The translations under genes and the position numbers were made by a program. Of a stretch of DNA of 64,000 nucleotides, positions 1,960 through 63,005 are shown in pieces. Origin of the DNA: an archaeon GW2011_AR5 (GTDB taxonomy: Archaea > Aenigmatarchaeota > Aenigmatarchaeia > GW2011-AR5). Within the stretch, counting starts at the first letter, position 1. The number at the start of each line of letters is the position of its first letter. The notes below the pieces were generated by a model. It searched no databases, was not told the origin of the DNA, and saw only the letters and a list, made by a program, of their open reading frames with translations. Where the stretch lies: the NCBI GenBank assembly GCA_000806115.1, contig JWKQ01000001.1, forward strand, positions 217,784 through 281,783, in the 5' to 3' direction.

Positions 1960-3807
1960 ATGAAGCTAAAACAAACCATAGGCAAAAAAACCCTCCTCAT
2001 ACTCATCCTGAACTCCATACTTGGTACTGGAATATTCTTTCTTCCTGCAGTAGGCGCAGCATATTCAGGCAGCGGCTCGCTGCTCGCTTGGCTGGCGATG
2101 TCGGTTGTTGCCATAGTGATATCGCTCTATTTTGCCGAAATCGCCTCTGTAGGTTCAACATACGACTTCGTCAAGAACGCCTTCGGCAAATCAACTGGCT
2201 TTCTTTTCGGATGGATGTCGTGGATTGCGTCCAGCATAACCATATCTATGCTGATAGTCGGCTCACTCATCTACATATTCCCAGACGCTGGCATACTGCT
2301 GAAAATTTTTGCCGCACTGTTCTTCATCATACTCTTCAATTTTGTCAATTACCGTGGCATAGACTTTGCCTCGAAGATGCTCCTGATATTCGGTATTCTA
2401 ACAGTTGCTGCACTACTTGCGCTTATAATCCCAGGGATCCCTACAACAGACACGTCACGTTTTGCCGGGATGTTTTCAACGCCGCTGCCCGTGATATTGC
2501 TCACAATATATTTCATATCCGAAACATTTTTTGGATGGGAAACGGCAACCTACCTTTCGGAGGAAATAAAGGACTCAAAGAAAGTGCTTCCGAAAATGCT
2601 GGTGTTGTCGACGGCAATAATCGCCGCGATCTCCATTCTTCTGGTTTTTGTTTCCATAGGGAACGTCGGAGCAGACGCCTTCGGGGCGCAGAATGCGCCG
2701 CTGGCGTTCCTCGCCGACAGGCTTTTCGGCAGTGGAGTTGGTGCCGTATTTGCATTCATAATATTTGTGCCTTTGATAGGCACAGCCGCGTCATGGATGG
2801 TTTCCTCACCTCGTCTTCTCTACTCGATGTCCAGGGACAAGGTGCTGGTGCCGCGCTTTGCCCGTATTCATAAGAAATACAGGACGCCGCATGTCGCCAT
2901 ACTTTTCCAGACAATAGTCATAGGCGTACTCACAGTCCTTGCATTCGGGAATTTCCTCTTCCTTTTATCGCTGCTTGTGCCGCTGGTTATAGTCATGTAC
3001 TCGATTGTGATGCTGTCGGTGGTTAAACTCAGAATGTCCAAGCCAAAAATGAGGAGAGAATTCAACGCCCCGTTCCCGAAAACCGGCCCGGTTGCGATAG
3101 TCATATTCAACATAATGCTGCTTTACATATGGCTTTCACACGTGACGGGTGCAGTGTACATATTCTCCATGGGAATCATACTTGTGATACTTGGGCTGCC
3201 GCTGTATGTTGCAATCCGCCTCAGCGTCGACAAGAAATTCACGGAGAAATTCTACGACAGGATAGCTTTCTTCTGGGACAAGTTCTTCCATATATGGTAC
3301 GGGGAAAAGGAGGCTGAAAAAATCCTGAAGTACCTCAGACTCAACGACAATTCAAAAGCGCTTGATTTCGGCTGCGGTTCCGGGAACACGACTCTGTTTG
3401 TCTCGAGAAGGCTGAGGAAGGGCACGGTGGTTGCCGTGGACCTCAGCGAAAAACAGCTGGAACACGCGGTGAAAAAAATAAAGAAATATCATCTCCATAA
3501 TGTCATATTCGTCAAGGGAAGCTTCAAGCCTCCAAAGAACACTTTCGACGCCGTAACTGCCGTAGGCGTGCTCGAACATCTTGACAGGCCGCACAAATAC
3601 GTGGCGCAACTGGTCAATTCCCTAAAGAAAGGCGGGCGATTCTATTTTCTGTCTTTTGGCAAGAGCCTCGGCATACCGGGACCCGAATTCCTTGAGAACG
3701 ACAAAAAAATAAAAGAACTTTTCAAAGGAACAAAAACAGAGATACGCATAGAAAGAAAGAAGAAAAGGCTTGTTGAGTACGTCTCGATTTACGGCGTGAA
3801 GAAATAA
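1960..3807 (+). CDS. APC-family amino acid/polyamine permease fused to a C-terminal class I SAM-dependent methyltransferase domain
   Basis: Start chosen at ATG 1960 (MKLKQTIGKKTLLILILNSILGTGIFFLPA...), just after the TrmB stop. About 12 hydrophobic segments are followed by LDFGCGSGNTTLF...VGVLEHL...LKKGGRFYF, the methyltransferase motifs I and post-I. Confidence 0.85.
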   Translation: MKLKQTIGKKTLLILILNSILGTGIFFLPAVGAAYSGSGSLLAWLAMSVVAIVISLYFAEIASVGSTYDFVKNAFGKSTGFLFGWMSWIASSITISMLIVGSLIYIFPDAGILLKIFAALFFIILFNFVNYRGIDFASKMLLIFGILTVAALLALIIPGIPTTDTSRFAGMFSTPLPVILLTIYFISETFFGWETATYLSEEIKDSKKVLPKMLVLSTAIIAAISILLVFVSIGNVGADAFGAQNAPLAFLADRLFGSGVGAVFAFIIFVPLIGTAASWMVSSPRLLYSMSRDKVLVPRFARIHKKYRTPHVAILFQTIVIGVLTVLAFGNFLFLLSLLVPLVIVMYSIVMLSVVKLRMSKPKMRREFNAPFPKTGPVAIVIFNIMLLYIWLSHVTGAVYIFSMGIILVILGLPLYVAIRLSVDKKFTEKFYDRIAFFWDKFFHIWYGEKEAEKILKYLRLNDNSKALDFGCGSGNTTLFVSRRLRKGTVVAVDLSEKQLEHAVKKIKKYHLHNVIFVKGSFKPPKNTFDAVTAVGVLEHLDRPHKYVAQLVNSLKKGGRFYFLSFGKSLGIPGPEFLENDKKIKELFKGTKTEIRIERKKKRLVEYVSIYGVKK

Positions 3808-3810
3808 GCC

Positions 3811-3833
3811 CCTTTCTTTTCAAAAAAGAAAGG
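3811..3833 (+). terminator. T-rich hairpin 4 nt after the permease stop codon
   Basis: CCTTTCTTTT at 3811-3820 pairs with AAAAGAAAGG at 3824-3833 around a 3-nt loop. Confidence 0.4.
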
Positions 3834-4003
3834 CCCTTGGATTCAACTCGAGATTGAACAAGTTCAATCTGAGTTCCCGAAAGCAATCATGCTTTCGAGG
3901 AAAGAAAATTATTACGAATTTGGCTCACTGCAAGCATGAAGAAATCAAATCCGAAGGACACAAAGCGTCAGTCAATAGGAAAGGAAGAAAGTTCTTAATA
4001 TCA

Positions 4004-5724: not shown

Positions 5725-5795
5725 TATAGTGAACCCAGAAAATAAACAGGATATGAATTCTGGGTTCACAGATAGTTCCCAAGGAAATAATACAA
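5725..5795 (+). repeat. structured repeat family, copy A (3' half diverged)
   Basis: TATAGTGAACCCAGAA...TTCTGGGTTCACAGATAG matches copies at 27406, 30105 and 52396(-). Hairpin arms are 5729-5740 and 5758-5769. Confidence 0.6.
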
Positions 5796-6053
5796 GAAAG
5801 AACGAAGTTCTTTCTGTACGGCAAGAATCTTTGATTCTTGCTCGTATCCAGATTGTTTCCTTGGAGAACTATAAACGAACTCCGAATTTAAGGTTTTCCA
5901 GGCAACTGACATGTAAGAAAAGAGGCCGGTGTATGCCCTACCAATGGATTCAGCGGTTTTAGCGGAGAACGCATCATGCTTAGGCATTTTTCTATTTCTC
6001 AGAGCTTTTAATTGGCAAATCCATAATAATCAAAGGAGTGGATTGACATCGCA

Positions 6054-7490: not shown

Positions 7491-9539
7491 ATGCTAACGA
7501 ACAAATTCCATCATAGAGTGACGATAACATCGGCAATTCCGTACGTTAACGGCGTGAAGCATCTCGGCAACCTTGTCGGTTCCATATTGCCGGCTGACAT
7601 ATTCCACCGTTTCTTGGACATCTTTTGCGTAGACAACATATTCATCTGCGGCACCGACGAACACGGCACAGCTGTAGAGCTTGCTGCGCTGGAAGAAGGA
7701 TTGACGCCGGAGAAATACTCGGAGAAGTATTACAAGATACAGAAGGACATATACGCAAAGTGGAATTTTGACTTCACGTTCTTCGGGCGCTCGTCGTCGG
7801 AGAGCAACCATCAAATCACACGGGACCTTTTCCTCTCCGGTTACGAGAACGGCTACATCAAGGAAGACATCATCATTGTTCCTTTCTGCAGGCATGATAA
7901 ACGCTTCCTTCCTGACAGATACATAATCGGCACATGCCCCGTCTGTGGATACGATTCCGCAAGGGGCGACCAGTGCGAGAAATGCAGCACCGTGCTGGAC
8001 CCGGAACAGCTGCAGAATCCCAGATGCAACGTGTGCAAAAAGCAGGAGATAGAGTTCAGAAAGGAGAAGCACCTTTTTCTCAACCTGCCTCTTCTTGAAG
8101 ACAGGCTGAAGGAATGGATTTTGCAGCAAAGCCACTGGCCCGACAACACGAGAAACCTCGCCCTGGGCTGGCTCAAGACGGGATTAAAACAGAGATGCAT
8201 AACACGCAACCTGAAGTGGGGCGTACAGGTGCCGCTCAAAGGGTACGAGCATCTTATATTTTATGTCTGGTACGACGCGCCCACGGCATATATTTCTATG
8301 ACAAAGGATGCGCATGACGCAAAAATAATCGGAGATTGGAAGAGCTACTGGAAAGACTCGCGAATTTATCAGTTCATGGGAAAGGACAACATACCTTTTC
8401 ACTCAATAATATGGCCGGCTATCTTATTGGCGGCGCGTGATTCAGAGCATCGCGACACAAATTACAGCCTTGTGCATCACCTCGCCGGCTATGAATACCT
8501 CAACTGGAACGGCGAGAAATTCTCCACGAGCAAAGGAGTCGGGCTCTTCAGCGACGAGGCTCTCGAGCTGTTTCCGGCTGATTACTGGCGGTTCTACCTT
8601 GCATCTATCCTGCCGGAGTCAAAGGATTCCAACTTCGACTGGAATGATTTTCAGAGCCGCGTGAACGGCGAGCTTATAGGCAACTACGGCAACCTCTTCT
8701 ACCGGACAACCTACTTCATAGAGAAGTATTTCGGCGGGGCTGTGCCAACCCCCGCATTGGGCGAGGCGGAGCGCAATCTCCAATGGAACCTGGAAAAGAC
8801 AATAAGCAAAGTGGAAGAACTGGTAGAGCAAGTCAAGTTAAGGGAGGCGCTGAAAGAGACGCTGGCTTTTGCCTCTCTGGTGAACAAGTACTTTCAGGAC
8901 AGCAAGCCGTGGGAGACCGTGAATACCGATAGGGAGAAAGCAGCGACCGCTCTTTATACTGCCGTGAACCTACTTAGACCTATATCAGTATTGCTATCGT
9001 CCTATATACCGGAAAGCGCACAGAAAGCTTTGGACTGCCTAGGAGGCGGAGCCGAACTAAATGACAAGTTCACAATAGCTCCAGGCAGCCCCGTAAGGGC
9101 GGAAATCCTTTTCAGGAAGATAGAGGACAGCGAGATAGAAAAGGTAAAGAAGTACAGGACGAAATATATTAAATCCGGGGACGTCCCGAAAGAAACCGCG
9201 GACGACTCGATAACTATTGTTGATGATATGCTTCCATACAAAGAATTCCAGAAAGTTGACATGAGAGTGGGTACTATCACCGACGTGAAGGAGCATCCCA
9301 ACGCGGAAAAGCTCTACATACTCAAGGTTGACATGGGCGACAGCCAGCGCCAGGTTGTGGCAGGGCTCCGCCAGCGCTACACAAAGGAACAGCTGGAGGG
9401 GCAGCAGATAATCGTACTGGTCAATCTAGAGCCCCGCGAATTAAGGGGAGTGCTAAGCGAGGGAATGCTACTGGCTGCCGAGGACGGCACCATACTTGAG
9501 CCTGCATCCGGCGTCCAGAACGGGTCGCGGATAATGTGA
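7491..9539 (+). CDS. metG: methionyl-tRNA synthetase with a C-terminal tRNA-binding (Trbp111/EMAP-like) domain
   Basis: Features: ITSAIPYVNGVKHLGNL, zinc knuckle CPVCGYDSARGDQCEKC, KFSTSKG, and the C-terminal VDMRVGTITDVKEHPNAEKLYILKVDMG. Confidence 0.93.
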   Translation: MLTNKFHHRVTITSAIPYVNGVKHLGNLVGSILPADIFHRFLDIFCVDNIFICGTDEHGTAVELAALEEGLTPEKYSEKYYKIQKDIYAKWNFDFTFFGRSSSESNHQITRDLFLSGYENGYIKEDIIIVPFCRHDKRFLPDRYIIGTCPVCGYDSARGDQCEKCSTVLDPEQLQNPRCNVCKKQEIEFRKEKHLFLNLPLLEDRLKEWILQQSHWPDNTRNLALGWLKTGLKQRCITRNLKWGVQVPLKGYEHLIFYVWYDAPTAYISMTKDAHDAKIIGDWKSYWKDSRIYQFMGKDNIPFHSIIWPAILLAARDSEHRDTNYSLVHHLAGYEYLNWNGEKFSTSKGVGLFSDEALELFPADYWRFYLASILPESKDSNFDWNDFQSRVNGELIGNYGNLFYRTTYFIEKYFGGAVPTPALGEAERNLQWNLEKTISKVEELVEQVKLREALKETLAFASLVNKYFQDSKPWETVNTDREKAATALYTAVNLLRPISVLLSSYIPESAQKALDCLGGGAELNDKFTIAPGSPVRAEILFRKIEDSEIEKVKKYRTKYIKSGDVPKETADDSITIVDDMLPYKEFQKVDMRVGTITDVKEHPNAEKLYILKVDMGDSQRQVVAGLRQRYTKEQLEGQQIIVLVNLEPRELRGVLSEGMLLAAEDGTILEPASGVQNGSRIM

Positions 9540-9665
9540 CGCGCCGTTTTTTGTGAGAAAACTGTCTTTCCAAAAGCCCATTACCGCCTTTAAGCGGTAG
9601 TTTTCAATGAATCCGGGATAAAAAGAACTCCGTTTTTTGAATCATTCTTTTTAATGCGAAGTCTT

Positions 9666-9792
9666 AACATTCCACCTATCTTCAGATGGTGGTATTATGT
9701 GTGGAATGTTGGACATAAAAAACACTGCGATTATATCAGTGGCATCTTATTCAAAAACTTCAGGATGCCACTGCCTTCAGGCAGTGGTTTTT
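9666..9792 (+). promoter_or_regulatory. two sets of overlapping (mutually exclusive) hairpins, the last followed by a T5 tract, upstream of the giant-protein operon
   Basis: First set: AACATTCCAC 9666-9675 pairs with GTGGAATGTT 9701-9710, against the inner pair CCACC 9672-9676 / GGTGG 9688-9692. Second set: CAGTGGCATC 9737-9746 pairs with GATGCCACTG 9764-9773, against CCACTGCC 9768-9775 / GGCAGTGG 9780-9787 followed by TTTTT 9788-9792. Confidence 0.35.
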
Positions 9793-9909: not shown

Positions 9910-12900
9910 ATGGAATCGGGGAAATTTGTAGGCTTAGTTATATTGGCCGCCTTGATTATGGTTAGCGTTCCGCTACCTACTATTGGAGCTGGTGTGGTCA
10001 ATGCCGTCGATTTCCCAAGGGCCTTTGGCAGCCCCCCCGCAGACGGGGGCACATGCCTGTCTCGCGATTTCGAGAACAGGTGCATACTCAAAGGCGGCAG
10101 ATATGGCGTTGGCAGATGCGTAGGAGCATTTTCATATTCCTGGCACGTTGAACAGACATTGTATCTTACTGACATACCCACCCAGACTTCCCTAAGCGCC
10201 TGCTATGACTATTGCAAAAACAATTATGCGCAGACCTGCAGGGAACCTTACATAGATTCTTCTTCCACTGTGGCTGACGGAACGAACGTTCCTGTGGGAC
10301 AGACGGTCACTGTTACTTATTCCAGGAACCCCAACCTGCAGAACAGTGTCATAGGACAGCCCCTCAAAATAACGTTTAAACTGAGTAACGAGCCTACATC
10401 GTATGTTGATTCGTGCCAGTCGGCATCATGCCAGAAACCATTCATTGTCGGCAACAACCTCGGGCTCGATGTGAAGGCCGGAGATACTTTGCATTACTGG
10501 ATAGACATGAGCCTTACAGACGGCACATACATAAGGTCGCCGGCTTCTGGAGTGCATTCTTTCACTTTTGCATCAGGCGCAACGCCGCCAACGAACCCGC
10601 CTGCGCAGGGCAAACAGCGGCTCGCAGTGACTAAAACAGGCACAGGCACTGTAACCAGCAACCCACCCGGCATAAATTGCGGCAATACATGTACATTTGA
10701 TTTCAACACAGGCACCCCGGTAACGCTTACGGCGAACCCCGACACAGGCCAGACATTTTCCGGCTGGAGCGGCGGCTGCACCGGCACAGGAATATGCCAG
10801 GTGATTATGAACGGACAAAAAAATGTTGCTGCCGCATTCAGCAGCACCACCCCGCCCGGCACGACGGGCACAATAACAATGGAGGTTCTTGGACAGACAG
10901 TTGTCGGCGGCTCTGTGATGCTCAGGTTCAGGGACTTGCCTGCCAATGCCGATCCCGGAAGATCGCAGCTTGAGATTCGTGATCCAGGCGGGTTAAGAGT
11001 TTACAACAGTTTCCTGACTTCGACATTGACTCAGGGCGAATTTGACGCAAGGATAGCTTTTACGCCGAGAACCCAGGGCGAACATTCTGTTATCCTGGTT
11101 GTAAACAACAACGCAGGGCAAAGGCTGGGAGAACTGCGCGACCAGAAATTCACAGTTGCAGCTGCAGGCACGACACCAGCCGGCCAGTGCAATAGCGCAT
11201 GCATAGGCGACGGATTCGGTTCCGGCAGGTGCGAGAACACGCCGCTGTCAAATCCCCAAGCGACTTCGTCGGCAGGAGGATACGGCTGTCCATCAACCCA
11301 GTATTGCAATTGTTATTCAACTAGTGCTCCGCCCGGCACGCCTGGCGCAGGATGCTGCGCGGTGAAAGAAGTCAATACTTACAATTCAGAAAATAGCATA
11401 CGCACAAGGGATGAATGCTCGCGCCAAGGCGGAGTATGGGGCAGCACCTGCGACCAGGCACATAACAGTGCGTGCAACCAATTCTGCTCGGGCAACGGCT
11501 ACGGCACCGCCGGCACTTGCAATCCCGCCGGCACGTCATCGTTCACCAACATCTGCCTAAACCCAACCACACCGTGCGTATGTACAGGCACCGGACAGCT
11601 TCGTAATACAAACATCCCGTGCAGGCAGGCGTGCAGCACTGATACAAGGGTATCGAGTGGCTATGGATACGGCGGCTATGGATATCCCGGCTACAGCTCT
11701 CCAGTGGTGCAGTCACAAGCTGCGCAGATTCCGTTCGGGCAGTGCACTAACAACCCCGAAGCTCTGCGCTTCGCATGGATGGCAAGCACACAAACAACCG
11801 GTACATCCGGACAGTATGTGCGCGAGCCGTTCCCGCTGTCACAGATTCCGGGACAATACCAATGCGGTGACGACGAGTTCTGCGTCTGTACTTTTCTCAG
11901 CCTGAGCTCTTTCAGCGCGACTAATCCTTCTCCCGTGAGAAACACGCCGGGGAGCATACAATGGGATGCACCCGATGCCATACCCAACCCGCCGGTAAAG
12001 CAGCCGAACCAGCGCGACTGCACAGTGGCGGCGAACGCGACAATCACGGCGATGTTCGCAGGCAACCAGACGGTGGGCGCCGGCGCAGCTTCACCTACGC
12101 GACTGATTCAGGCAGGCGACTCGGTTACCATAACAGGCAACGTGGGCAAATTGTCGGATAGTTGCGAAGGCTACACGTACACATGCAGGAAAGAAAAGAT
12201 AATCCCTTGCGATACGCACAACCGCGTTTTGTGGACGTCATTAAGCGCCGAAGACTGCCCGGCGGGAACAACACTGGTGAATGACCCGCAGGAAGGCAGG
12301 ACAGCGAATTGGCGCACTATCGTAGGAATCGCGCTTATAGCTGCGAGCTTTACCCCGTGCGACGGGGCGTGCATGAGTGCAGGAATATCAAGTATAATAG
12401 ACGGCGCGGTGGCAGGATTGAATTGCGACAGCGGACGGACACCGCAGAGCAACGCGCTTTTATATTACTCGATGCTGCAGCAGGTTCAGGAAAGGAGCAG
12501 TCAAAATAATCCCAATAATCAGGGAGGCGGGGCTAATTTGAACTTCTGTTGCAGCCAGAATGACAATGCCTTCTGCGAGGACAACAGCAAGAGAGGCACG
12601 GGATACTGCATAGGTTCGTCGGTAAGCTGCCCGAACAGATATACAAAAAGGACTTGCCCCGGCACGAACACTAATGCAAATCAAAACGCGAACACCGGCG
12701 GAAACAATAACGCAGACATAGACTGCGTAAACCCAAGCGAGTATTGTTCTTTGGACGGTAATTGCAACGCCGGCAGTCAGGAAGAATGCTGGATAGGCGG
12801 GACGCAGGGAACTTGTTGTAGCTATTCTCCCACCGGCGCTGCCGTCGCCAGCAACGCAGGAACATCAGCAAGTGCGGCAAACAATGCTGCCAAATACAAC

Positions 12901-18275: not shown

Positions 18276-18296
18276 CTTTTTCTTTGGAAGAAAAAG
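18276..18296 (+). terminator. conserved T-rich hairpin 8 nt after the stop codon
   Basis: CTTTTTCTT 18276-18284 pairs with AAGAAAAAG 18288-18296 around the loop TGG. Almost the same sequence occurs at 59407 and 29388(-). Confidence 0.45.
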
Positions 18297-26105: not shown

Positions 26106-26664
26106 AATATTCTATTGTTTTGTGTTATATAACTGCTTTCGAGAGAAAAAAGGGGAAAACCCCGGGAGCCAGAAAAAGACGTTCTCCGAACGTCGTCCTG
26201 GACTTCCTCAGGGCTTAGGGGGTGCAACATTTCTTTTTTCAGACCACGTCTTGCCGAACAAACAGACGCACAATGTACGTCATGCATTTACCAGAACATA
26301 TCCGGGAGGTCTGCTGTAACTATCAATTTCTGCATAAATAGGGCTTTTGGTGCAATCGCTGAAAATTAGTGCATTTTATGAAACGAAGGAAATTTGTCTC
26401 ATGTGATGACATTTAGTGCAATAAATTTTTACTGTGCAACTGAAATAGCATTTGTGTTACTATGTTGGTATTCACTAAAAAGTAATGAAAATTACATCGC
26501 TTTAAGTAGTAGTCAGTAGATGTAAGGTTAGGTGGGAGTCATGAGATACAAAAAAATAAGGATAGAAAGAAGTTCTTCATTGACGCAATCGATATGGCAG
26601 ATGCAATCCAGATTCTTACCGTTTTATCCTATGCCAAATGTTTGATCTTCGATCAAGGACTGAT

Positions 26665-26758
26665 TTAAAGCGTTCCAAGAAAAAAAATCGAGATACTATA
26701 CCTTGGAACGCTTTAAGTGAACCAAATTTATAGTATCACGATTTATTATTTGGTTCAC
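26665..26758. repeat. two adjacent perfect inverted repeats in a long non-coding AT-rich region
   Basis: TTAAAGCGTTCCAAG 26665-26679 pairs with CTTGGAACGCTTTAA 26702-26716. GTGAACCAAAT 26717-26727 pairs with ATTTGGTTCAC 26748-26758. The second pair resembles hairpin 1 of the repeat family. Confidence 0.55.
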
Positions 26759-27059
26759 ATTGATAGGCGGATGACATGGAATCAAGGCTCGTCCGGAGCC
26801 GACTGACACAATCCGGCGATTTTGCCGGAAGAGACTCGTATCCTTCCAAGGATAACCTGAAATGCTAATTTGTCATTAACGTGTTTCTGATTCGTTAGCA
26901 ACGTGGTTTTGGGTTGCAGATTTGGCGTGTACAGTCTTTCTGGAAATTAACAGTAATCTGAATAAAATTTCCGGGATTCAGTCGCCAAAACCATGTTGTC
27001 CCTATTGAAATTTTTACCTTTTCAAATTTTACTGAAATTTTTCGATAATGGTGATAGGC

Positions 27060-27170
27060 ATGAAAGTATGCATCGAATGCAACAGAGGGTTTAGTGAGCA
27101 CAGAAGTTATAATACACGGTGTTTTGACTGCTGGCGAATTGGCTTGAAAGAAAGGAAAGGGTATTACTAA
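27060..27170 (+). CDS. 36 aa mini zinc-ribbon protein (below the ORF-track cutoff)
   Basis: Hand translation gives MKVCIECNRGFSEHRSYNTRCFDCWRIGLKERKGYY*, with a CxxC-N13-CxxC pattern. It resembles the Cys motif of 28266..28493. Confidence 0.4.
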   Translation: MKVCIECNRGFSEHRSYNTRCFDCWRIGLKERKGYY

Positions 27171-27187
27171 TTGAGGATGTGATTTAT

Positions 27188-27337
27188 ATGGCAAACAAAA
27201 TAAGCATGGACTGGTCCAAGATTTCAGTGGTTTCAGTGATAGCGTTTCTGGCTGGCTGGCTTATATTCGGACTTCTTGGAGCTGTAGTATTGGCTATTGT
27301 AGCCCTGGCTCTGATGGGAATCCTGAAAATCAGATAA
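27188..27337 (+). CDS. 49 aa small membrane protein (below the ORF-track cutoff)
   Basis: Hand translation gives MANKISMDWSKISVVSVIAFLAGWLIFGLLGAVVLAIVALALMGILKIR*. It starts 17 nt after the preceding mini-ORF. Confidence 0.4.
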   Translation: MANKISMDWSKISVVSVIAFLAGWLIFGLLGAVVLAIVALALMGILKIR

Positions 27338-27405
27338 CGATTTTATTGAGAGCTCAGTAAGGATTGCAAAGACTCCAGAATGAAAGACATGGAATAACAA
27401 AGAAT

Positions 27406-27500
27406 TATAGTTAACCCAGAAAAGATTTCGGACATGAATTCTGGGTTAACAGATAGCTCACAAGAAAGTAATATACTGTTTACTTCCTTGTAGAGCTATA
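27406..27500 (+). repeat. structured repeat family, copy B
   Basis: 95 nt reading TATAGTTAACCCAGAAAAGATTTCGGACATGAATTCTGGGTTAACAGATAGCTCACAAGAAAGTAATATACTGTTTACTTCCTTGTAGAGCTATA. It forms two hairpins. Confidence 0.7.
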
Positions 27501-27514
27501 AGGGGGTAATTAAA

Positions 27515-27634
27515 ATGGCAAAAATAAGCAGAGACGGCGGAATGACTGCTGCGAAGACGCGCGCATCAAAGTCAGCCGGCGGCAAAGGTCAAGTAAACGG
27601 CCGACCGGCTGGCAAACGAATAATGCGAACTTGA
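27515..27634 (+). CDS. 39 aa basic microprotein (speculative)
   Basis: Hand translation gives MAKISRDGGMTAAKTRASKSAGGKGQVNGRPAGKRIMRT*. AGGGGGT lies 7 nt upstream of the ATG. There is no homology evidence. Confidence 0.3.
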   Translation: MAKISRDGGMTAAKTRASKSAGGKGQVNGRPAGKRIMRT

Positions 27635-27829
27635 ATAAAGTTATGGGGGCGAATTAAAATAAACCCGAAGACTTATAGTAAAAAGTGGGCACGACGTGGA
27701 ACGCTTTTGAAATCCGTCTGGGTGATACAAATCTGAATATCGGATGGAGTAATAAACCTAGGTAGCGACATTTCTAATATTGACTTCAAGCCTTAAATAT
27801 TATCTGCGCGAAGTATATCCAGTGATAAT

Positions 27830-28048
27830 ATGAAATTCAAAGTTTTAATCGAAAAAGGCGAAGATGGCTATTTCGTAGCTACGGTGCCATCTCTTCCTGG
27901 GTGTATTTCACAGGGAAAGACAGAAGCTCAGGCAAAGGAAAACATAAAGGAAGCCATTGAACTGCATCTCGAAGCTTTGGCGGAGGATGGTATACCTATA
28001 ACTCAGCCAACGCACGGCAAAGTAACAGATGTACAGGTTAAGTTATGA
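27830..28048 (+). CDS. hicB: HicB-family antitoxin (UPF0150)
   Basis: MKFKVLIEKGEDGYFVATVPSLPGCISQGKTEAQAKENIKEAIELHLEAL is a typical HicB N-terminal domain. It overlaps the next gene by 4 nt. Confidence 0.85.
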   Translation: MKFKVLIEKGEDGYFVATVPSLPGCISQGKTEAQAKENIKEAIELHLEALAEDGIPITQPTHGKVTDVQVKL

Positions 28049-28260
28049 AACTTCCTGTTGTTTCGGGCAAGGAAACAATAAAGGCTCTTTCTAAGATTGG
28101 CTATTATATTCGTGACCAGAAAGGCAGTCATGTCCACATGCGGCATCCAATAAAAAGACCGCTTACAGTTCCAATGCACAATGAGATAGACAGAGGAACA
28201 CTGAGAGCAATACTCAAGGCTGCTGAAATTTCTGAAAAAGAGTTTATTGAATTGCTGTGA
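28045..28260 (+). CDS. hicA: HicA-family mRNA interferase toxin
   Basis: LPVVSGKETIKALSKIGYYIRDQKGSHVHMRHP...LTVPMHNEIDRGTLRAILKAAEIS matches the YcfA/HicA pattern (G-SH...P.H). Confidence 0.85.
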   Translation: MKLPVVSGKETIKALSKIGYYIRDQKGSHVHMRHPIKRPLTVPMHNEIDRGTLRAILKAAEISEKEFIELL

Positions 28261-28265
28261 TAAGA

Positions 28266-28493
28266 ATGGACGAAGAAAAAGACGGTGAAGAATTTTGGAC
28301 GGAAGGCTCATTTGTGCAATCTATGAGTTCGAAAGATTGGGAGAAGAAGAAACGGACATTCCACATGAAGCATGACGAGGAGATGAATTACAACTGCAAG
28401 AAATGCAACAAGAAAATCTCCGCGCACAACAAGGACTGGCATGACGGGATGTGCGACGACTGCTTCAATGAGACATATTTTCGTGAGGAATAA
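28266..28493 (+). CDS. 75 aa zinc-ribbon protein, third gene of the hicBA operon
   Basis: ORF 28257..28493. The ATG at 28266 is preceded by GTGATAAGA, which is SD-like. The Cys motif is CKKCNKKISAHNKDWHDGMCDDC. Confidence 0.55.
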   Translation: MDEEKDGEEFWTEGSFVQSMSSKDWEKKKRTFHMKHDEEMNYNCKKCNKKISAHNKDWHDGMCDDCFNETYFREE

Positions 28494-28518
28494 TCTCATA
28501 GAGTGACCTGAAATTCAG

Positions 28519-28667
28519 TGGGCCCGACGAGATTCGAACTCGCGACATCCTGCTAACCTTTTTAGAAAAAAGCTTAACCAAAAACTTCTTTCTATATTAA
28601 GAGGCAGGCGCTAGCGGCGTATGAAATGCGAAGCATTTCGTGCACTACCAGGCTGAGCTACAGGCCC
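28519..28667 (-). tRNA. tRNA-Lys(CUU) with two introns (32 nt in the D-arm and 43 nt at 37/38)
   Basis: The spliced reading is GGGCCTG TA GCTC AGCCTGGTA GAGC G CCTGC CTCTTAA GCAGG ATGTC GCGAG TTCGAAT CTCGT CGGGCCC A. The 74 nt of exon plus 75 nt of intron equals the 149 nt observed. Confidence 0.8.
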
Positions 28668-29011
28668 TTCAACTTGGAAGTATTGTACGTTAGATTTATA
28701 TTTGTGCGCTTCAGACATTTGACATGTCATTGAAGAGTCCCTGTAAACTTCTTTATCAGATAGTTCATGCTACAAAATACGCAAAAGATGCGACAACCGC
28801 TCAGCGGACATGGAGGGCGGACGGGCTCCTGCGCGGCATCGGGCAATACTTATCAGATAACAGCGCAGAATACATGCTAAAATACCCCGAGTATGTGGGT
28901 GAGATATCGAAGGCATTAAGGCAGGCCAGAAAACGCGTTTTTTCTCATGAAAGAAGAATCAGAGCCCAGGAAAGAGTGGGCCAATAGAGGACTTTGAATA
29001 ATTATAGCTTT

Positions 29012-29257
29012 TTATTTTCCGCTCTTGTGGCGGCCCTGGCGCGCCGTCTTCACTTTCTGGTGCTTGTGCACTATCGTCTTTCTTCCTGAGCGGTTGATCG
29101 GCTTCCATTTCCATGAGTCGTGCTTCAGCTTCGCTATCGGATAACCGCACGCGCTGCATTCCTTCTTCTGGATGTGATAACTATGACGGCCGCATCTCCT
29201 GCAACGGATATGCGTTATCTTGTTGAATTTTCCCCTTGCTGATGTTCCCTTACTCAT
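29012..29257 (-). CDS. rpl37e: 50S ribosomal protein L37e (eL37)
   Basis: [40 protein letters not shown] carries the eL37 zinc ribbon. Confidence 0.92.
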
Positions 29258-29367
29258 CTTCTCAACCCTGCAATTATCTTTTGTTACTTGAAAGACAAAG
29301 CTTAAAAAGTATATTTAATCACGGGCGCTAGCGATTCATCTAATAATATGTTTCTTTTTCCCAAGGA

Positions 29368-29388
29368 TTTTTCTTTTCCAAAGAAAAA
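29368..29388 (-). terminator. conserved T-rich hairpin 8 nt downstream of the Sm-like gene stop
   Basis: The minus-strand reading is TTTTTCTTT-GGA-AAAGAAAAA, with a 9-bp stem. Confidence 0.45.
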
Positions 29389-29395
29389 GGCTTAA

Positions 29396-29620
29396 TTATT
29401 CGCTCTTTTCAGGTGAGACGTAGAGTATGTTGTCGCCGCGCACAAGAATAGTTCCGAGCTTCACCTTGTCCTCATCGGACACCTGTTCGGCGCTTTCGAG
29501 CCACATGTTCAGGTGAAGGTCCATAGCCTGAAGAATGCCGGAAATTTCCCCGCCCTTCTTCAGCTTTATCAAAACTCTCTTGCCTTTTGCGTTGTTCAAA
29601 ACGTCTATAGGCCGTTCCAT
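29396..29620 (-). CDS. archaeal Sm-like (LSm/SmAP) protein
   Basis: PIDVLNNAKGKRVLIKLKKGGEISGILQAMDLHLNMWLESAE...ILVRGDNILYVSP carries the Sm1 and Sm2 motifs. It lies upstream of rpl37e, the conserved archaeal pairing. Confidence 0.9.
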   Translation of the reverse strand: MERPIDVLNNAKGKRVLIKLKKGGEISGILQAMDLHLNMWLESAEQVSDEDKVKLGTILVRGDNILYVSPEKSE

Positions 29621-29703
29621 AAAAGTCCTCCAAATTTCAAAAAATTTTACTGATGTTTAATTTCCCGCATATGCTTAAATAGATGTGAGATTTTAAGGTG
29701 TGT

Positions 29704-30084
29704 ATGACAAAGTGGCAGCTGCCTCCGAGAAAGAAAACAACCGGCGGCGCGATTAAGAAGCACGGCAAGAAGAACAGGCTCCAGAGGGGCCGCGACTACC
29801 TGCCTACGAGAATAGCGGAGCCAAAGATAAAGCAGAAGCGGACTCTTGGCGGAAACACGAAAAGAATAGCGCTTTCCATAAACATCGCCAACGTCTCGGT
29901 GGATGGAAAACATCAAAAAGTCAAGATACTTTCCGTTGCAGAGAACAGTGCGGACAGCCAGTTCGTAAGAAGAAACATAATCACGAAAGGCGCAGTCATA
30001 CAGACGGAACTCGGCAAGGCGCGGGTTACCAGCAGGCCCGGACAGGAAGGAACTGTAAATGCCGTCTTGATTGAGAAGAAATAA
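29704..30084 (+). CDS. rps8e: 30S ribosomal protein S8e (eS8)
   Basis: MTKWQLPPRKKTTGGAIKKHGKKNRLQRGRD. The ATG at 29704 is preferred over the GTG at 29698 because AGGTG precedes it. Confidence 0.92.
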   Translation: MTKWQLPPRKKTTGGAIKKHGKKNRLQRGRDYLPTRIAEPKIKQKRTLGGNTKRIALSINIANVSVDGKHQKVKILSVAENSADSQFVRRNIITKGAVIQTELGKARVTSRPGQEGTVNAVLIEKK

Positions 30085-30104: not shown

Positions 30105-30199
30105 TATAGTGAACCCACAAAAGATTTCGGACATGAATTGTGAGTTCACAGATAGCTCACAAGGAAGTAATACGCTGTTTATTTCCTTGTAGAGCTATA
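30105..30199 (+). repeat. structured repeat family, copy C
   Basis: 95 nt reading TATAGTGAACCCACAAAAGATTTCGGACATGAATTGTGAGTTCACAGATAGCTCACAAGGAAGTAATACGCTGTTTATTTCCTTGTAGAGCTATA. Confidence 0.7.
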
Positions 30200-51237: not shown

Positions 51238-51431
51238 GGGCTCGTGGTCTAATACAAATCCCTTCTTTGTAAAGAAGGTCTTTGTGAACCCCAAGAAACA
51301 GAGGGCTTCGCAAATATTAGGGATTTGTGGAGATTGGAATGACACTACGTTCGCATAACCTTTCCAGACCTCATGAAAACGGAAGGGTTCGAGGCACGTA
51401 GAGGCTCCGGGTTCAACTCCCGGCGAGTCCA
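51238..51431 (+). tRNA. tRNA-Ala(CGC) with two introns (82 nt in the D-loop, 51254-51335; 40 nt at 37/38, 51356-51395)
   Basis: Features: acceptor GGGCTCG/CGAGTCC with G3:U70; anticodon stem CTACG/CGTAG; loop TT-CGC-AA; T-arm CCGGG TTCAACT CCCGG. Exons total 72 nt and introns 122 nt, which equals the 194 nt observed. Confidence 0.75.
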
Positions 51432-52083: not shown

Positions 52084-52217
52084 GGGCTCGTGGTCTAAAC
52101 TGGAAAAGCTTTTCTTTTGGCAGCAATGGAAAAGAACTATTATCCAGAGTGATGCTTCCATGGCATAGAGATTTTCGCCGAAGGAAGAGGCTCCGGGTTC
52201 AAATCCCGGCGAGTCCA
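52084..52217 (+). tRNA. tRNA-Ala(GGC) with two introns (44 nt at D-arm position about 21/22, 52106-52149; 16 nt at 37/38, 52166-52181)
   Basis: It has the same acceptor and T-arm as the other tRNA-Ala, including G3:U70. The anticodon stem is CTTCC/GGAAG and the loop is AT-GGC-AA. Exons of 74 nt plus introns of 60 nt equal the 134 nt observed. Confidence 0.75.
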
Positions 52218-52250: not shown

Positions 52251-52396
52251 TATGGCTCTACAAGGAAACAGTCTGACATTATTTCCTTGTAAGCTACAAG
52301 GTGAAGCTATGCTTCACCTGTACGGGAGAACCTTCGGTTCTCCCTGTATCTGCGAACCCAGAATTTATATCGGGATTCTTTTCTGGGTTCACTATA
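52251..52396 (-). repeat. structured repeat family, copy D (long variant with two extra internal hairpins)
   Basis: The minus-strand reading is TATAGTGAACCCAGAAAAGAATCCCGATATAAATTCTGGGTTCGCAGATA, then GGGAGAACCGAAGGTTCTCCC and GGTGAAGCATAGCTTCACC, then ...CTTACAAGGAAATAATGTCAGACTGTTTCCTTGTAGAGCCATA. Confidence 0.65.
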
Positions 52397-52428: not shown

Positions 52429-52899
52429 ATGCGAATCAGAAAGCTGCGCGAGGACGACATAGGCAACATAGTCGCCATGATACACGACGTCATGGGACCC
52501 GACGACGCGAAGAAAGCGCTGCAGGACATAAGGATAAGCCTTGACAAGCACATTTACAAATTCGAGGAATTCTACGTCCTTGAGGTTGACAGCGAAATAG
52601 TCGCCGCCGGCGGGTTCTGGTCACTCAAGTACGACCCTGACATAGCGAGGCTTGACTGGTTCGTGGTGCCGAGGAAGCACCAGCGGCGCGGCTTCGGCAG
52701 GATGCTGATGAAGCACATAGTCAGCCGCGCAAAAATGCTAAAGCTGAGATTAATCCTTGCCGAAACAAGCGACGGGCAGCAGTACAAGGCGGCGAGGGAG
52801 TTCCTGATGAAGAACAGCTTCAAAAAAGCCGCAGTCATAAAGAATTACTGGAACGACGGCTCCTCCGCCGTTTATTTTATAAGACGATTGAAAAAGTGA
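52429..52899 (+). CDS. GNAT-family N-acetyltransferase
   Basis: WFVVPRKHQRRGFGRMLMKHIV is the acetyl-CoA binding motif Q/RxxGxG. Confidence 0.85.
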   Translation: MRIRKLREDDIGNIVAMIHDVMGPDDAKKALQDIRISLDKHIYKFEEFYVLEVDSEIVAAGGFWSLKYDPDIARLDWFVVPRKHQRRGFGRMLMKHIVSRAKMLKLRLILAETSDGQQYKAAREFLMKNSFKKAAVIKNYWNDGSSAVYFIRRLKK

Positions 52900-58222: not shown

Positions 58223-58290
58223 AAGGTCGAGTCTGAACCCTTTCTTGGGGTTAAGACCTAGACCTTCTTTCGGGAAAGAAGGGATTGGTA
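58223..58290 (+). ncRNA. structured intercistronic element, copy 1 (rpl23/rpl2 junction)
   Basis: Hairpin A is AACCC 58236-58240 with GGGTT 58248-58252. Hairpin B is CCTTCTTT 58263-58270 with AAAGAAGG 58275-58282. It ends in GGGATTGGTA directly before ATG 58291. The copy is about 85 percent identical, by eye, to 62942-63005. Confidence 0.5.
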
Positions 58291-59406: not shown

Positions 59407-59425
59407 TTTTCTTTGGAAAAGAAAA
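59407..59425 (+). terminator. conserved T-rich hairpin 6 nt after the rps19 stop
   Basis: TTTTCTTT 59407-59414 pairs with AAAGAAAA 59418-59425 around the loop GGA. Confidence 0.45.
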
Positions 59426-62941: not shown

Positions 62942-63005
62942 AAGGTTGAGTCAAACCCTTCTTTGGGGTAAGACCTAGACCTTTCTTCGGAAGAAAGGGA
63001 TTGGT
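62942..63005 (+). ncRNA. structured intercistronic element, copy 2 (rpl24/rps4e junction)
   Basis: Hairpin A is ACCC 62955-62958 with GGGT 62966-62969. Hairpin B is CCTTTCTT 62980-62987 with AAGAAAGG 62991-62998. It ends in GGGATTGGT directly before ATG 63006. Confidence 0.5.

Follow-up and report, generated by a model that had tools for sequence, protein, structure and literature searches.

The RUP element of Streptococcus pneumoniae is a 107-bp miniature non-autonomous DNA transposon (MITE) whose presumed agent is an IS630-family transposase, and its inverted repeats match those of the resident insertion sequence (IS) IS630-Spn1. The Correia elements (CREE/NEMIS) of Neisseria have 26-bp inverted repeats, with the whole element forming one hairpin, and occur in length variants produced by internal deletion; they form RNA hairpins when co-transcribed and, to our knowledge, no transposase has yet been identified for them. 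The BOX repeats of S. pneumoniae are modular (boxA-boxB(n)-boxC) and their modules vary by tandem copy number. IS200/IS605 and REP elements are asymmetric, their two hairpins pointing the same way on one strand, and they produce no duplication of the target; the REP, BIME and REPIN repeats of bacteria carry GTAG at the 5' foot and depend for mobilisation on a single-copy RAYT gene flanked by REPs, and the IS200/IS605 derivatives have no inverted repeats and insert 3' of a fixed tetra- or pentanucleotide. Here we analyse a repeat of 95 nucleotides (nt) found in a window of 64,000 nt, the stretch of contig JWKQ01000001.1 (assembly GCA_000806115.1) to whose positions all coordinates refer unless another locus is named. 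Our analysis indicates that this repeat is very probably a MITE of an Aenigmatarchaeota (DPANN) archaeon, which inserts at TA and duplicates this TA.

The repeat is real and is present in five copies in the window, named A to D plus a diverged fifth copy (Table 1). The first four had been listed in a sequence-only reading of this DNA, and all of them were recovered: the 5' 20-mer and the 3' 17-mer of the repeat each match four times with at most three mismatches, against 0.00 and 0.09 matches in shuffled sequences, and copies A to D fold at -38.5 to -68.8 kcal/mol (z = -8.1 to -10.5 against their own dinucleotide shuffles). Copy A, which had been described as diverged in its 3' half, is in fact complete, its hairpin-2 loop being split by 54 nt plus a duplicated TA. 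The supposed hairpin-1-like relic at 26717-26758 is indeed related to the family, but it is half of the complete fifth copy and not a relic. Hairpin 1 of the fifth copy is GTGAACCAAAT/ATTTGGTTCAC and its hairpin 2 is AAAGCGTTCCAAGG/CTTGGAACGCTTT; the same subfamily is also present at L017 1704-1793.

To look for the repeat elsewhere, a degenerate hairpin-1 pattern was scanned against the GTDB genome set, the JGI metagenomes and viral contigs. Three copies were found in one genome of the GTDB set, the metagenome-assembled genome (MAG) Candidatus Aenigmatarchaeota RIFCSPLOWO2_01_FULL_48_10, with the remaining six matches in that set being scattered and chance-like; 13 stretches matched in JGI groundwater metagenomes, and the viral contigs gave 0 matches. 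After removal of same-locus duplicates, 16 full copies with unrelated flanks remained, all of them intergenic, as had been proposed for the copies in the window. A strict perfect-stem scan for TATAG-hairpin-CTATA units returned nothing, since hairpin 2 is bulged, and a covariance model built on the 16 full copies was used instead to search the relatives, where it added diverged subfamilies, solo hairpins and decayed copies (L052 9288-9365, ~9850 and 10451-10519). The window shows no synteny, at the nucleotide or protein level, with the MAG or metagenome loci that carry other copies, and the nearest named homologues of its rpS8e and TrpRS are from Aenigmatarchaeota.

The evidence for mobility comes from filled and empty sites at orthologous positions. 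The relative L049, fetched via rpS8e (95% identical protein), is collinear with window positions 26452-30084, at ~90-93% identity in most aligned blocks (single blocks have 80% and 100%), and the alignment is interrupted exactly at the repeats. The site of copy B is empty in L049, which reads GAAT-TA-AGGGGG with a single TA, while the window reads GAAT-TA-[93 nt]-TA-AGGGGG; in the wider context AAAGAAT-TA-AGGGGGTAA is empty and AAAGAAT-TA-[TAG...CTA]-TA-AGGGGGTAA is filled. The site of the fifth copy is likewise empty in relatives, as GATT-TA-ATAGG in L052 and GATT-TG-ATAGG in L049, and is filled in the window as GATT-TA-[...]-TG-ATAGG. Reciprocally, 151 nt at L049 3103-3253 are absent from the window at 29011/29012, and this insert consists of a small repeat, "X", into which a 95-nt element is nested at GT-TA-AT. 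Among the 16 copies, 12 have a T before the left TA and 14 have an A after the right TA. These filled and empty sites, with the flank preference, identify the repeat as mobile DNA whose target is TA, usually as T-TA-A, with the TA duplicated. The target-site duplications that the sequence-only reading had suggested looking for are present at base resolution, and of the three options that it left open the mobile one is supported by exact filled and empty sites as well as by the nested insertions described below. The repeat also shows the generic traits of a MITE, since it is 94-150 nt long, lacks an open reading frame (ORF), is multi-copy and dispersed between unrelated flanks, and combines target duplication with presence/absence at orthologous sites.

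Other loci were less informative for base-exact junctions. L058, which is syntenic and encodes an 83%-identical TrpRS, has no element upstream of trpS, and its flanks are too diverged for the junction to be read exactly. The contigs that encode identical flanking proteins all come from the same strain and offer no empty site; two of them, L035 and L036, simply break off at the repeat. The spacer between LSM and rpS8e was considered as a clean empty site and was set aside, because the inserts in the relatives are composite and no exact junction could be defined.

The short form of the element follows the plan TA-TAG, hairpin 1, AGA-TA, hairpin 2, CTA-TA, with a total of 95 nt. Hairpin 1 has a 12-bp stem and a 17-nt loop, and hairpin 2 has 18 pairs plus a conserved bulged A; the subfamilies retain a bulge close to the foot of this hairpin. 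The ends TATAG/CTATA, reported previously as the shared ends of the repeat, are conserved, but they are composed of the duplicated target TA plus the element tips TAG/CTA, so that the mobile unit is the 93-nt TAG...CTA (we write this end type as TA/TAGTGAACC). In the canonical subfamily the tips have just TAG/CTA in common, plus the inverted loop motif.

The hairpin-1 loop is the reverse complement of the hairpin-2 loop. In a diverged subfamily (L056 7757 and L049 3142) each hairpin is bounded by its own TATA, and the element is an imperfect palindrome along its full length that scores nearly equally on either strand in the covariance model (46.1 versus 45.0 bits and 43.4 versus 42.5 bits). 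The reverse complementarity of the loops and the equal scores of the two strands indicate that the element consists of one hairpin unit in the form of an inverted dimer. Loops are conserved across subfamilies while stems are changed. A kissing interaction between the loops was also considered; pairing of a copy's own loops (-4.49 kcal/mol) was no better than pairing across copies (-4.41 kcal/mol; p = 0.43), and this idea was rejected in favour of the inverted homology of the hairpins. Readings as H/ACA RNA, C/D-box RNA or K-turn were dropped as well, since the hairpins lack a pseudouridylation pocket, C/D boxes and tandem G.A pairs. We also detected single-hairpin relatives with TATAG/CTATA ends at L013 ~8343-8390 and L059 ~3640-3690. 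The plan of this single-hairpin family is (T/G)ATAG-stem-CAAAAGTTCAAWTATCA-stem-CTATAAGAC, in which the loop and flanks are conserved and the stems rebuilt, and it is probably the monomer type ancestral to the 95-nt dimer. The two arms of each stem would then correspond to the terminal inverted repeats of a one-hairpin ancestor, and the 95-nt form would be a dimer that now moves as a single piece.

Copies A and D are longer than the others. Copy D had been taken for a long variant with two extra perfect hairpins; the hairpins are there, but in both copies they belong to another, smaller element that sits at TA sites within the first. This element is ~50 nt long and has the form TA/CAAG-hairpin-CTGTACAG-hairpin-CTTG/TA. 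The inserts are of two types, type A (51-54 nt) in the hairpin-2 loop and type D (52 nt) between the hairpins, and both have TA at the two borders. Uninterrupted copies have a single TA where the inserts would sit (AGA-TA-GCTC and AA-TA-TCCAG), and the uninterrupted type-A target AATA/TCCAGATTG is present in copy L007-. When the insert and one TA are removed, all nine long copies shrink to 94-98 nt, seven of them to exactly 95. Solo mini-modules were found at L006 1213-1263 and L007 275-327, with stems that are wholly different yet perfectly paired, and the mini-module occurs in the opposite orientation at L019. Composites of type A are present at four loci and those of type D at five, which indicates that they spread after the nesting event. 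A ~50-nt palindromic element has thus inserted at TA sites inside the 95-nt element, and the composites later moved to several loci. These data define a new MITE family and at least one nested mini-MITE family in the Aenigmatarchaeota, and they show that the very small genomes of DPANN symbionts host several interacting families of tiny palindromic mobile elements.

Table 1. Location of the repeat copies, their hairpins and the nested mini-modules in the window.
Feature	Position	Strand	Description
Copy A, composite, 149 nt	5725-5873	+	95-nt element, mini-module within hairpin-2 loop
Mini-module within copy A	5791-5846	+	TA/CAAG-hairpin-CTGTACGG-hairpin-...CTCG/TA, 54 nt + duplicated TA
Fifth copy, diverged subfamily	26666-26762	-	covariance-model score 41 bits, E 3.5e-6
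Copy B, short form, 95 nt	27406-27500	+	TA+TAG, hairpin 1, AGA-TA, hairpin 2, CTA+TA
Copy B, hairpin 1	27410-27450
Copy B, hairpin 2	27453-27499		bulged A
Copy C, short form, 95 nt	30105-30199	+	hairpin 1 variant CACAA/TTGTG
Copy D, composite, 146 nt	52251-52396	-	mini-module at TA separating hairpins 1 and 2
Mini-module within copy D	52295-52348	-	TA/CAGG-hairpin-CCGTACAGG-hairpin-CCTTG/TA, 52 nt including one TA

Among the described families, RUP is similar to the present element in being ~100 nt long, non-coding, intergenic and present in many copies, with TA duplication, a stable fold and no transposase of its own. RUP differs in being bacterial and in having a parent IS, which we did not find here; there is no sequence similarity between them, the archaeal element is a dimer of hairpin units, and the obvious identity of its ends in the main subfamily is 3-5 nt only. 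The Correia elements share the TA duplication, the TATAG...CTATA termini, a length of 100-150 nt, the existence of short and long forms and the location next to genes, co-transcribed copies would form RNA hairpins in both, and no transposase has been found for either; they are also bacterial, and in our element the length variants result from nested insertion. The TATAG tip common to both probably arose by chance, from TA followed by a short tip. The likeness to BOX lies in a modular and highly structured organisation with variable internal hairpin modules, with the difference that the modules here are separate mobile elements at TA sites that have solo copies elsewhere. Archaeal and DPANN MITEs, such as SM1-SM4 of Sulfolobus, are likewise small and non-autonomous and reside in archaeal intergenic DNA. 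We know of no archaeal MITE family with a hierarchy of hairpin unit, dimer and nested mini-module. The five copies in 64 kb amount to ~80 per Mb if the density of the window is typical, which is comparable to the values reported for DPANN, where the most MITE-dense genomes contain 100-146 MITEs per Mb (PMC11602168). Neither the element family nor the host lineage Aenigmatarchaeota is mentioned in PMC11602168 or PMC13343696.

The pairing of the stems is maintained to a high degree. Among the 16 cores 98.5% of the cells are paired, against 31-46% in slid-partner controls, the covariation exceeds that of shuffles, and four pairs are changed on both sides. When hairpin 1 is compared in 23 copies, 244 of 253 cells are Watson-Crick and at least seven Watson-Crick switches are seen. 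The compensatory changes already named for copy B (GTTAAC/GTTAAC) and copy C (CACAA/TTGTG) are confirmed. The stems of the mini-modules vary even more, with at least eight different, perfectly paired versions. Such data could be taken to mean that the copies are structured RNA genes or cis-acting modules of untranslated regions (UTRs), involved in stability, termination or translation, whose hairpins are selected at each locus. Points in favour of this reading, besides the pairing and the covariation, are the very stable predicted folds (z = -8 to -10.5), the conservation of the loops while the stems change, and the position of 11 of the 16 copies near a gene start, with copy B directly before a Shine-Dalgarno-like motif.

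The distribution of the stem variants argues against it. All eight one-sided variants are private to one locus and all four compensated variants are common to 2-7 loci (private versus shared, Fisher p = 0.002), so that no private compensated pair exists among the 16 full copies. The one-sided changes are divided between G.T and A.C (4 versus 5 in the 16 cores; 3 versus 2 in hairpin 1 without loop positions), which means that G.U is not in excess over A.C and that no strand signature is detectable, the counts being too small to show a bias. Propagated G.T wobbles are seen at two of the apical hairpin-2 pairs, and there on a single strand. Copies between co-directional genes are oriented in both ways (five sense and three antisense), their flanks are unrelated and contain no conserved promoter at a fixed distance, decayed copies persist, and copies are gained and lost among close relatives with target duplication. 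The complementarity between the two loops, which is not maintained within copies, also speaks against an RNA function. Rfam matched only three tRNAs in the whole window at gathering thresholds, and when copies B and D were scanned permissively the best E values were 0.06-0.3, far under gathering scores; the repeat cannot be assigned to a described structured RNA family, in agreement with the failure of the sequence-only reading to match it to a known one.

Shared compensated variants together with private one-sided variants indicate that the compensation took place in the propagating source copies and that inserted copies gather mismatches. The sharing of variants, the lack of a strand signature, the mixed orientation and the persistence of decayed copies all argue against selection on an RNA at each locus, and compensation in place, strand-specific tolerance of G.U and conserved position and orientation, which characterise functional non-coding RNAs (ncRNAs), were not observed. 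We conclude that the structure matters for the propagation of the element and not as RNA at each locus, and we consider the RNA reading, which was one of the options first proposed, very improbable. Intact palindromic arms would be needed for propagation; source copies would acquire compensated variants, while inserted copies would drift neutrally and remain uncompensated. With the identity of this conspicuous structured repeat of DPANN settled, the case calls for caution in annotating an ncRNA family from "covariation" alone. It also provides a useful test, as compensated changes that are shared and uncompensated changes that are private point to selection on propagation and not to RNA function per locus.

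Regarding the mechanism, TA duplication is the signature of the IS630/Tc1-mariner superfamily, and from this duplication we take an agent of this type as the most likely one: the element would be moved by a trans-acting, TA-specific, cut-and-paste transposase. Of the traits expected of a MITE dependent on IS630/Tc1-mariner, the TA target and its duplication are present. IS630-family transposases occur in archaea (PMC13343696). Several observations weigh against this MITE interpretation and the proposed agent. No transposase of any family was found in the 20 ORFs scanned by Pfam in the window and the loci of other copies, nor in the Pfam annotations of the fetched strain and relative loci (~0.5 Mb in all, not a whole genome), and DDE_3 had no match in the ~0.5 Mb examined. 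Ends that share just TAG/CTA and a loop motif are poor for a transposase binding inverted repeats of 20-30 bp. The compensated stem change in hairpin 1 is unexplained by a sequence-specific double-strand binder alone, and would fit better with recognition of a folded single strand. The type-A insert splits the conserved hairpin-2 loop and the composites still spread, so the loop is not obviously a binding site. Finally, an element with TA at its own end that inserts 3' of TA would formally give a TA...TA junction as well.

These points lead to the main rival on mechanism, in which the repeat is mobile through a hairpin-dependent single-strand process, as an archaeal counterpart of REP/REPIN-RAYT or as a palindrome-associated derivative of an IS200/IS605 element with a Y1 HUH enzyme. 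The enzyme would recognise a folded hairpin and a short foot sequence instead of a double-stranded inverted repeat. The stems do vary while remaining paired (at least seven switches in hairpin 1, four in the canonical core and at least eight mini-module stems), the compensated variants are the ones that were propagated, a bulge is conserved near the foot of hairpin 2, the hairpin feet carry short conserved motifs (TATAG, GATAG, TACAAG and GTACAG), the propagated G.T wobbles of the apical hairpin-2 pairs are confined to a single strand, and the TA...TA junction would suit insertion 3' of TA by a TA-ending element. Like the REP, BIME and REPIN repeats, our element has short palindromic units with a foot motif, mosaics, inverted doublets and compensated stems in intergenic DNA. 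It differs from them in the TA duplication, in having TATAG or TACAAG at the foot instead of GTAG, and in the lack of a visible RAYT. In addition, the hairpins are mutually inverted and the element is nearly two-fold symmetric, the target is merely the palindromic TA, neither a Y1 nor a RAYT gene was seen in the scanned ORFs or in the Pfam annotations of the fetched loci, and one-sided changes without the apical positions lack strand bias (G.T 3-4 versus A.C 2-5). The features that define REP/REPIN repeats with RAYT were not found, and the inverted hairpins and near two-fold symmetry do not agree with an IS200/IS605-derived palindrome-associated element. The single-strand mechanism, which we nevertheless regard as unlikely, also draws support from IS200/IS605 being the most widespread of the archaeal IS families (PMC13343696).

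A more speculative proposal, which we hold to be rather doubtful, is that the TA-bounded units form a hierarchy of single hairpins, inverted dimers and nested ~50-nt mini-modules that is propagated by its fold and not by its sequence, through a structure-recognising mobilisation system of DPANN instead of as an ordinary IS630-type MITE. Such a system may be the archaeal equivalent of REP/RAYT, with a TA duplication as its product, or may use an enzyme of another kind. If the dependence on hairpins does reflect a structure-specific transposition enzyme, these repeats would offer a handle on an undescribed archaeal mobilisation system.

The genomic surroundings of the copies are consistent with a MITE that inserts between genes. 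Copy A occupies the spacer that separates trpS from a divergent 564-aa gene. Copy B is 14 nt 5' of the ATG of a 39-aa ORF, its Shine-Dalgarno-like neighbour being the AGGGGG motif that immediately follows it. Copy C begins 20 nt past the stop codon of rpS8e, between convergent gene ends, and copy D is antisense to both of its neighbours, a tRNA (52084-52217, +) and an acetyltransferase gene at 52429 (+). The fifth copy sits in an AT-rich non-coding islet. Eleven of the 16 copies are within ~50 nt of some gene start, and the adjoining genes are unrelated housekeeping genes. Effects on these genes, such as hairpins in the 5'-UTR or 3'-UTR and displaced promoters, would be a by-product of insertion. 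The elements enter regions near promoters, start codons, ribosomal-protein and tRNA genes, fragment metagenome assemblies and create variation at the strain level.

The proximity to gene starts could also suggest a host DNA signal, either a palindromic site for a regulator or chromatin protein or an outward TATA-like promoter module formed by the CTATAA ends. CTATAA is in fact read outward at both ends, the ends of several copies are 24-32 nt from a start codon, and each element contains two copies of the conserved loop motif, inverted relative to each other. The distances are inconsistent, however, as shown by the positions of copies B and C, and the gene next to copy D has a TTTTTAAT box of its own, placed between its ATG and the element. 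Since the neighbouring genes are unrelated and the presence/absence in close relatives shows that the sites are dispensable, this explanation, which includes the protein-binding DNA module of the sequence-only reading, appears extremely improbable.

Additional observations were made around the copies. The whole 26.1-28.7 kb region is AT-rich and has few long ORFs, and a HicB/HicA toxin-antitoxin pair is located at 27830-28260, between copy B and a tRNA at 28519-28667, according to the Pfam annotation of the matching strain locus L039. Repeat X, the host of the nested element in L049, has the form TTTGTTCAAAGT..TATTGTGAACTTTGACAATCAAG...TCTCAATA; it occupies L049 3103-3145 plus 3237-3253 and is also found at L007 5671-5750. 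At rpS8e, where the relatives encode a 95%-identical protein and their DNA is 98% (L051) or ~91% (L049) identical, the homology stops exactly at the stop codon (30085 onward in the window, 4382 onward in L049 and 1489 onward in L051); the gene content differs downstream of it, where the window has a 199-aa gene and the relatives have an 81-aa ORF. As judged from this comparison of sequences, a recombination or rearrangement breakpoint appears to adjoin copy C. On the other side of the gene, the spacer between the rpS8e promoter (a conserved TTAAATAG box) and the ATG has 83 nt in the window (29621-29703) and 152-268 nt in the relatives L052, L055 and L056, with different hairpin-bearing inserts in each relative, which indicates an insertion hot spot inside the rpS8e 5' leader.

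Close to copy D, one strain variant (L026 ~2680-2780) has a 97-nt insertion at the 3' end of the tRNA 52084-52217 (window ~52203). It has a 17-nt direct repeat, AATCCCGGCGAGTCCAT, at its borders, and inside it are a GAACCCCCGGGTTC palindrome and two hairpins (9-bp stems, 3-nt loops). This insertion differs from the element and may represent an additional intron or an att-like integration scar. At 51238-51431 (+) we found a tRNA-like gene with long introns that had not been annotated, whose 5' end reads GGGCTCGTGGTCTAA... and whose 3' end reads ...GGCTCCGGGTTCAACTCCCGGCGAGTCCA. This gene and the intron-containing tRNA 52084-52217 are close paralogues, and it was overlooked by the Rfam gathering thresholds and by ARAGORN. 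The string GTGAACCCCAAGAAACAG (51284-51301), previously reported as related to the repeat and located in a tRNA intron, does lie inside this gene, but nothing pairs with it as the other arm of a hairpin and it does not count among the copies.

Other hairpins are also present in the window. Three successive hairpins occupy 3808-3900, between the convergent permease-methyltransferase gene and the 564-aa gene, and the corresponding spacer in L058 has just 24 nt, which indicates that this cluster is also lineage-specific inserted DNA. An intergenic hairpin cluster at 9600-9790 follows the 682-aa tRNA-synthetase gene and includes TTATAT-CAGTGGCATC-(17-nt loop)-GATGCCACTG, whose stem and loop geometry equals that of hairpin 1. 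Hairpins made of a pyrimidine run and a purine run, for example CCTTTCTTTT-CAA-AAAAGAAAGG, were detected at 3811-3833 (immediately after a stop codon), 18276-18296, 29368-29388, 58263-58282, 59407-59425 and 62980-62998, and may represent bidirectional T-rich terminator structures. Twin hairpins of this kind have identical flanks (cctaga...gattgg) and compensated stems, and are apparently located in spacers of ribosomal-protein operons.

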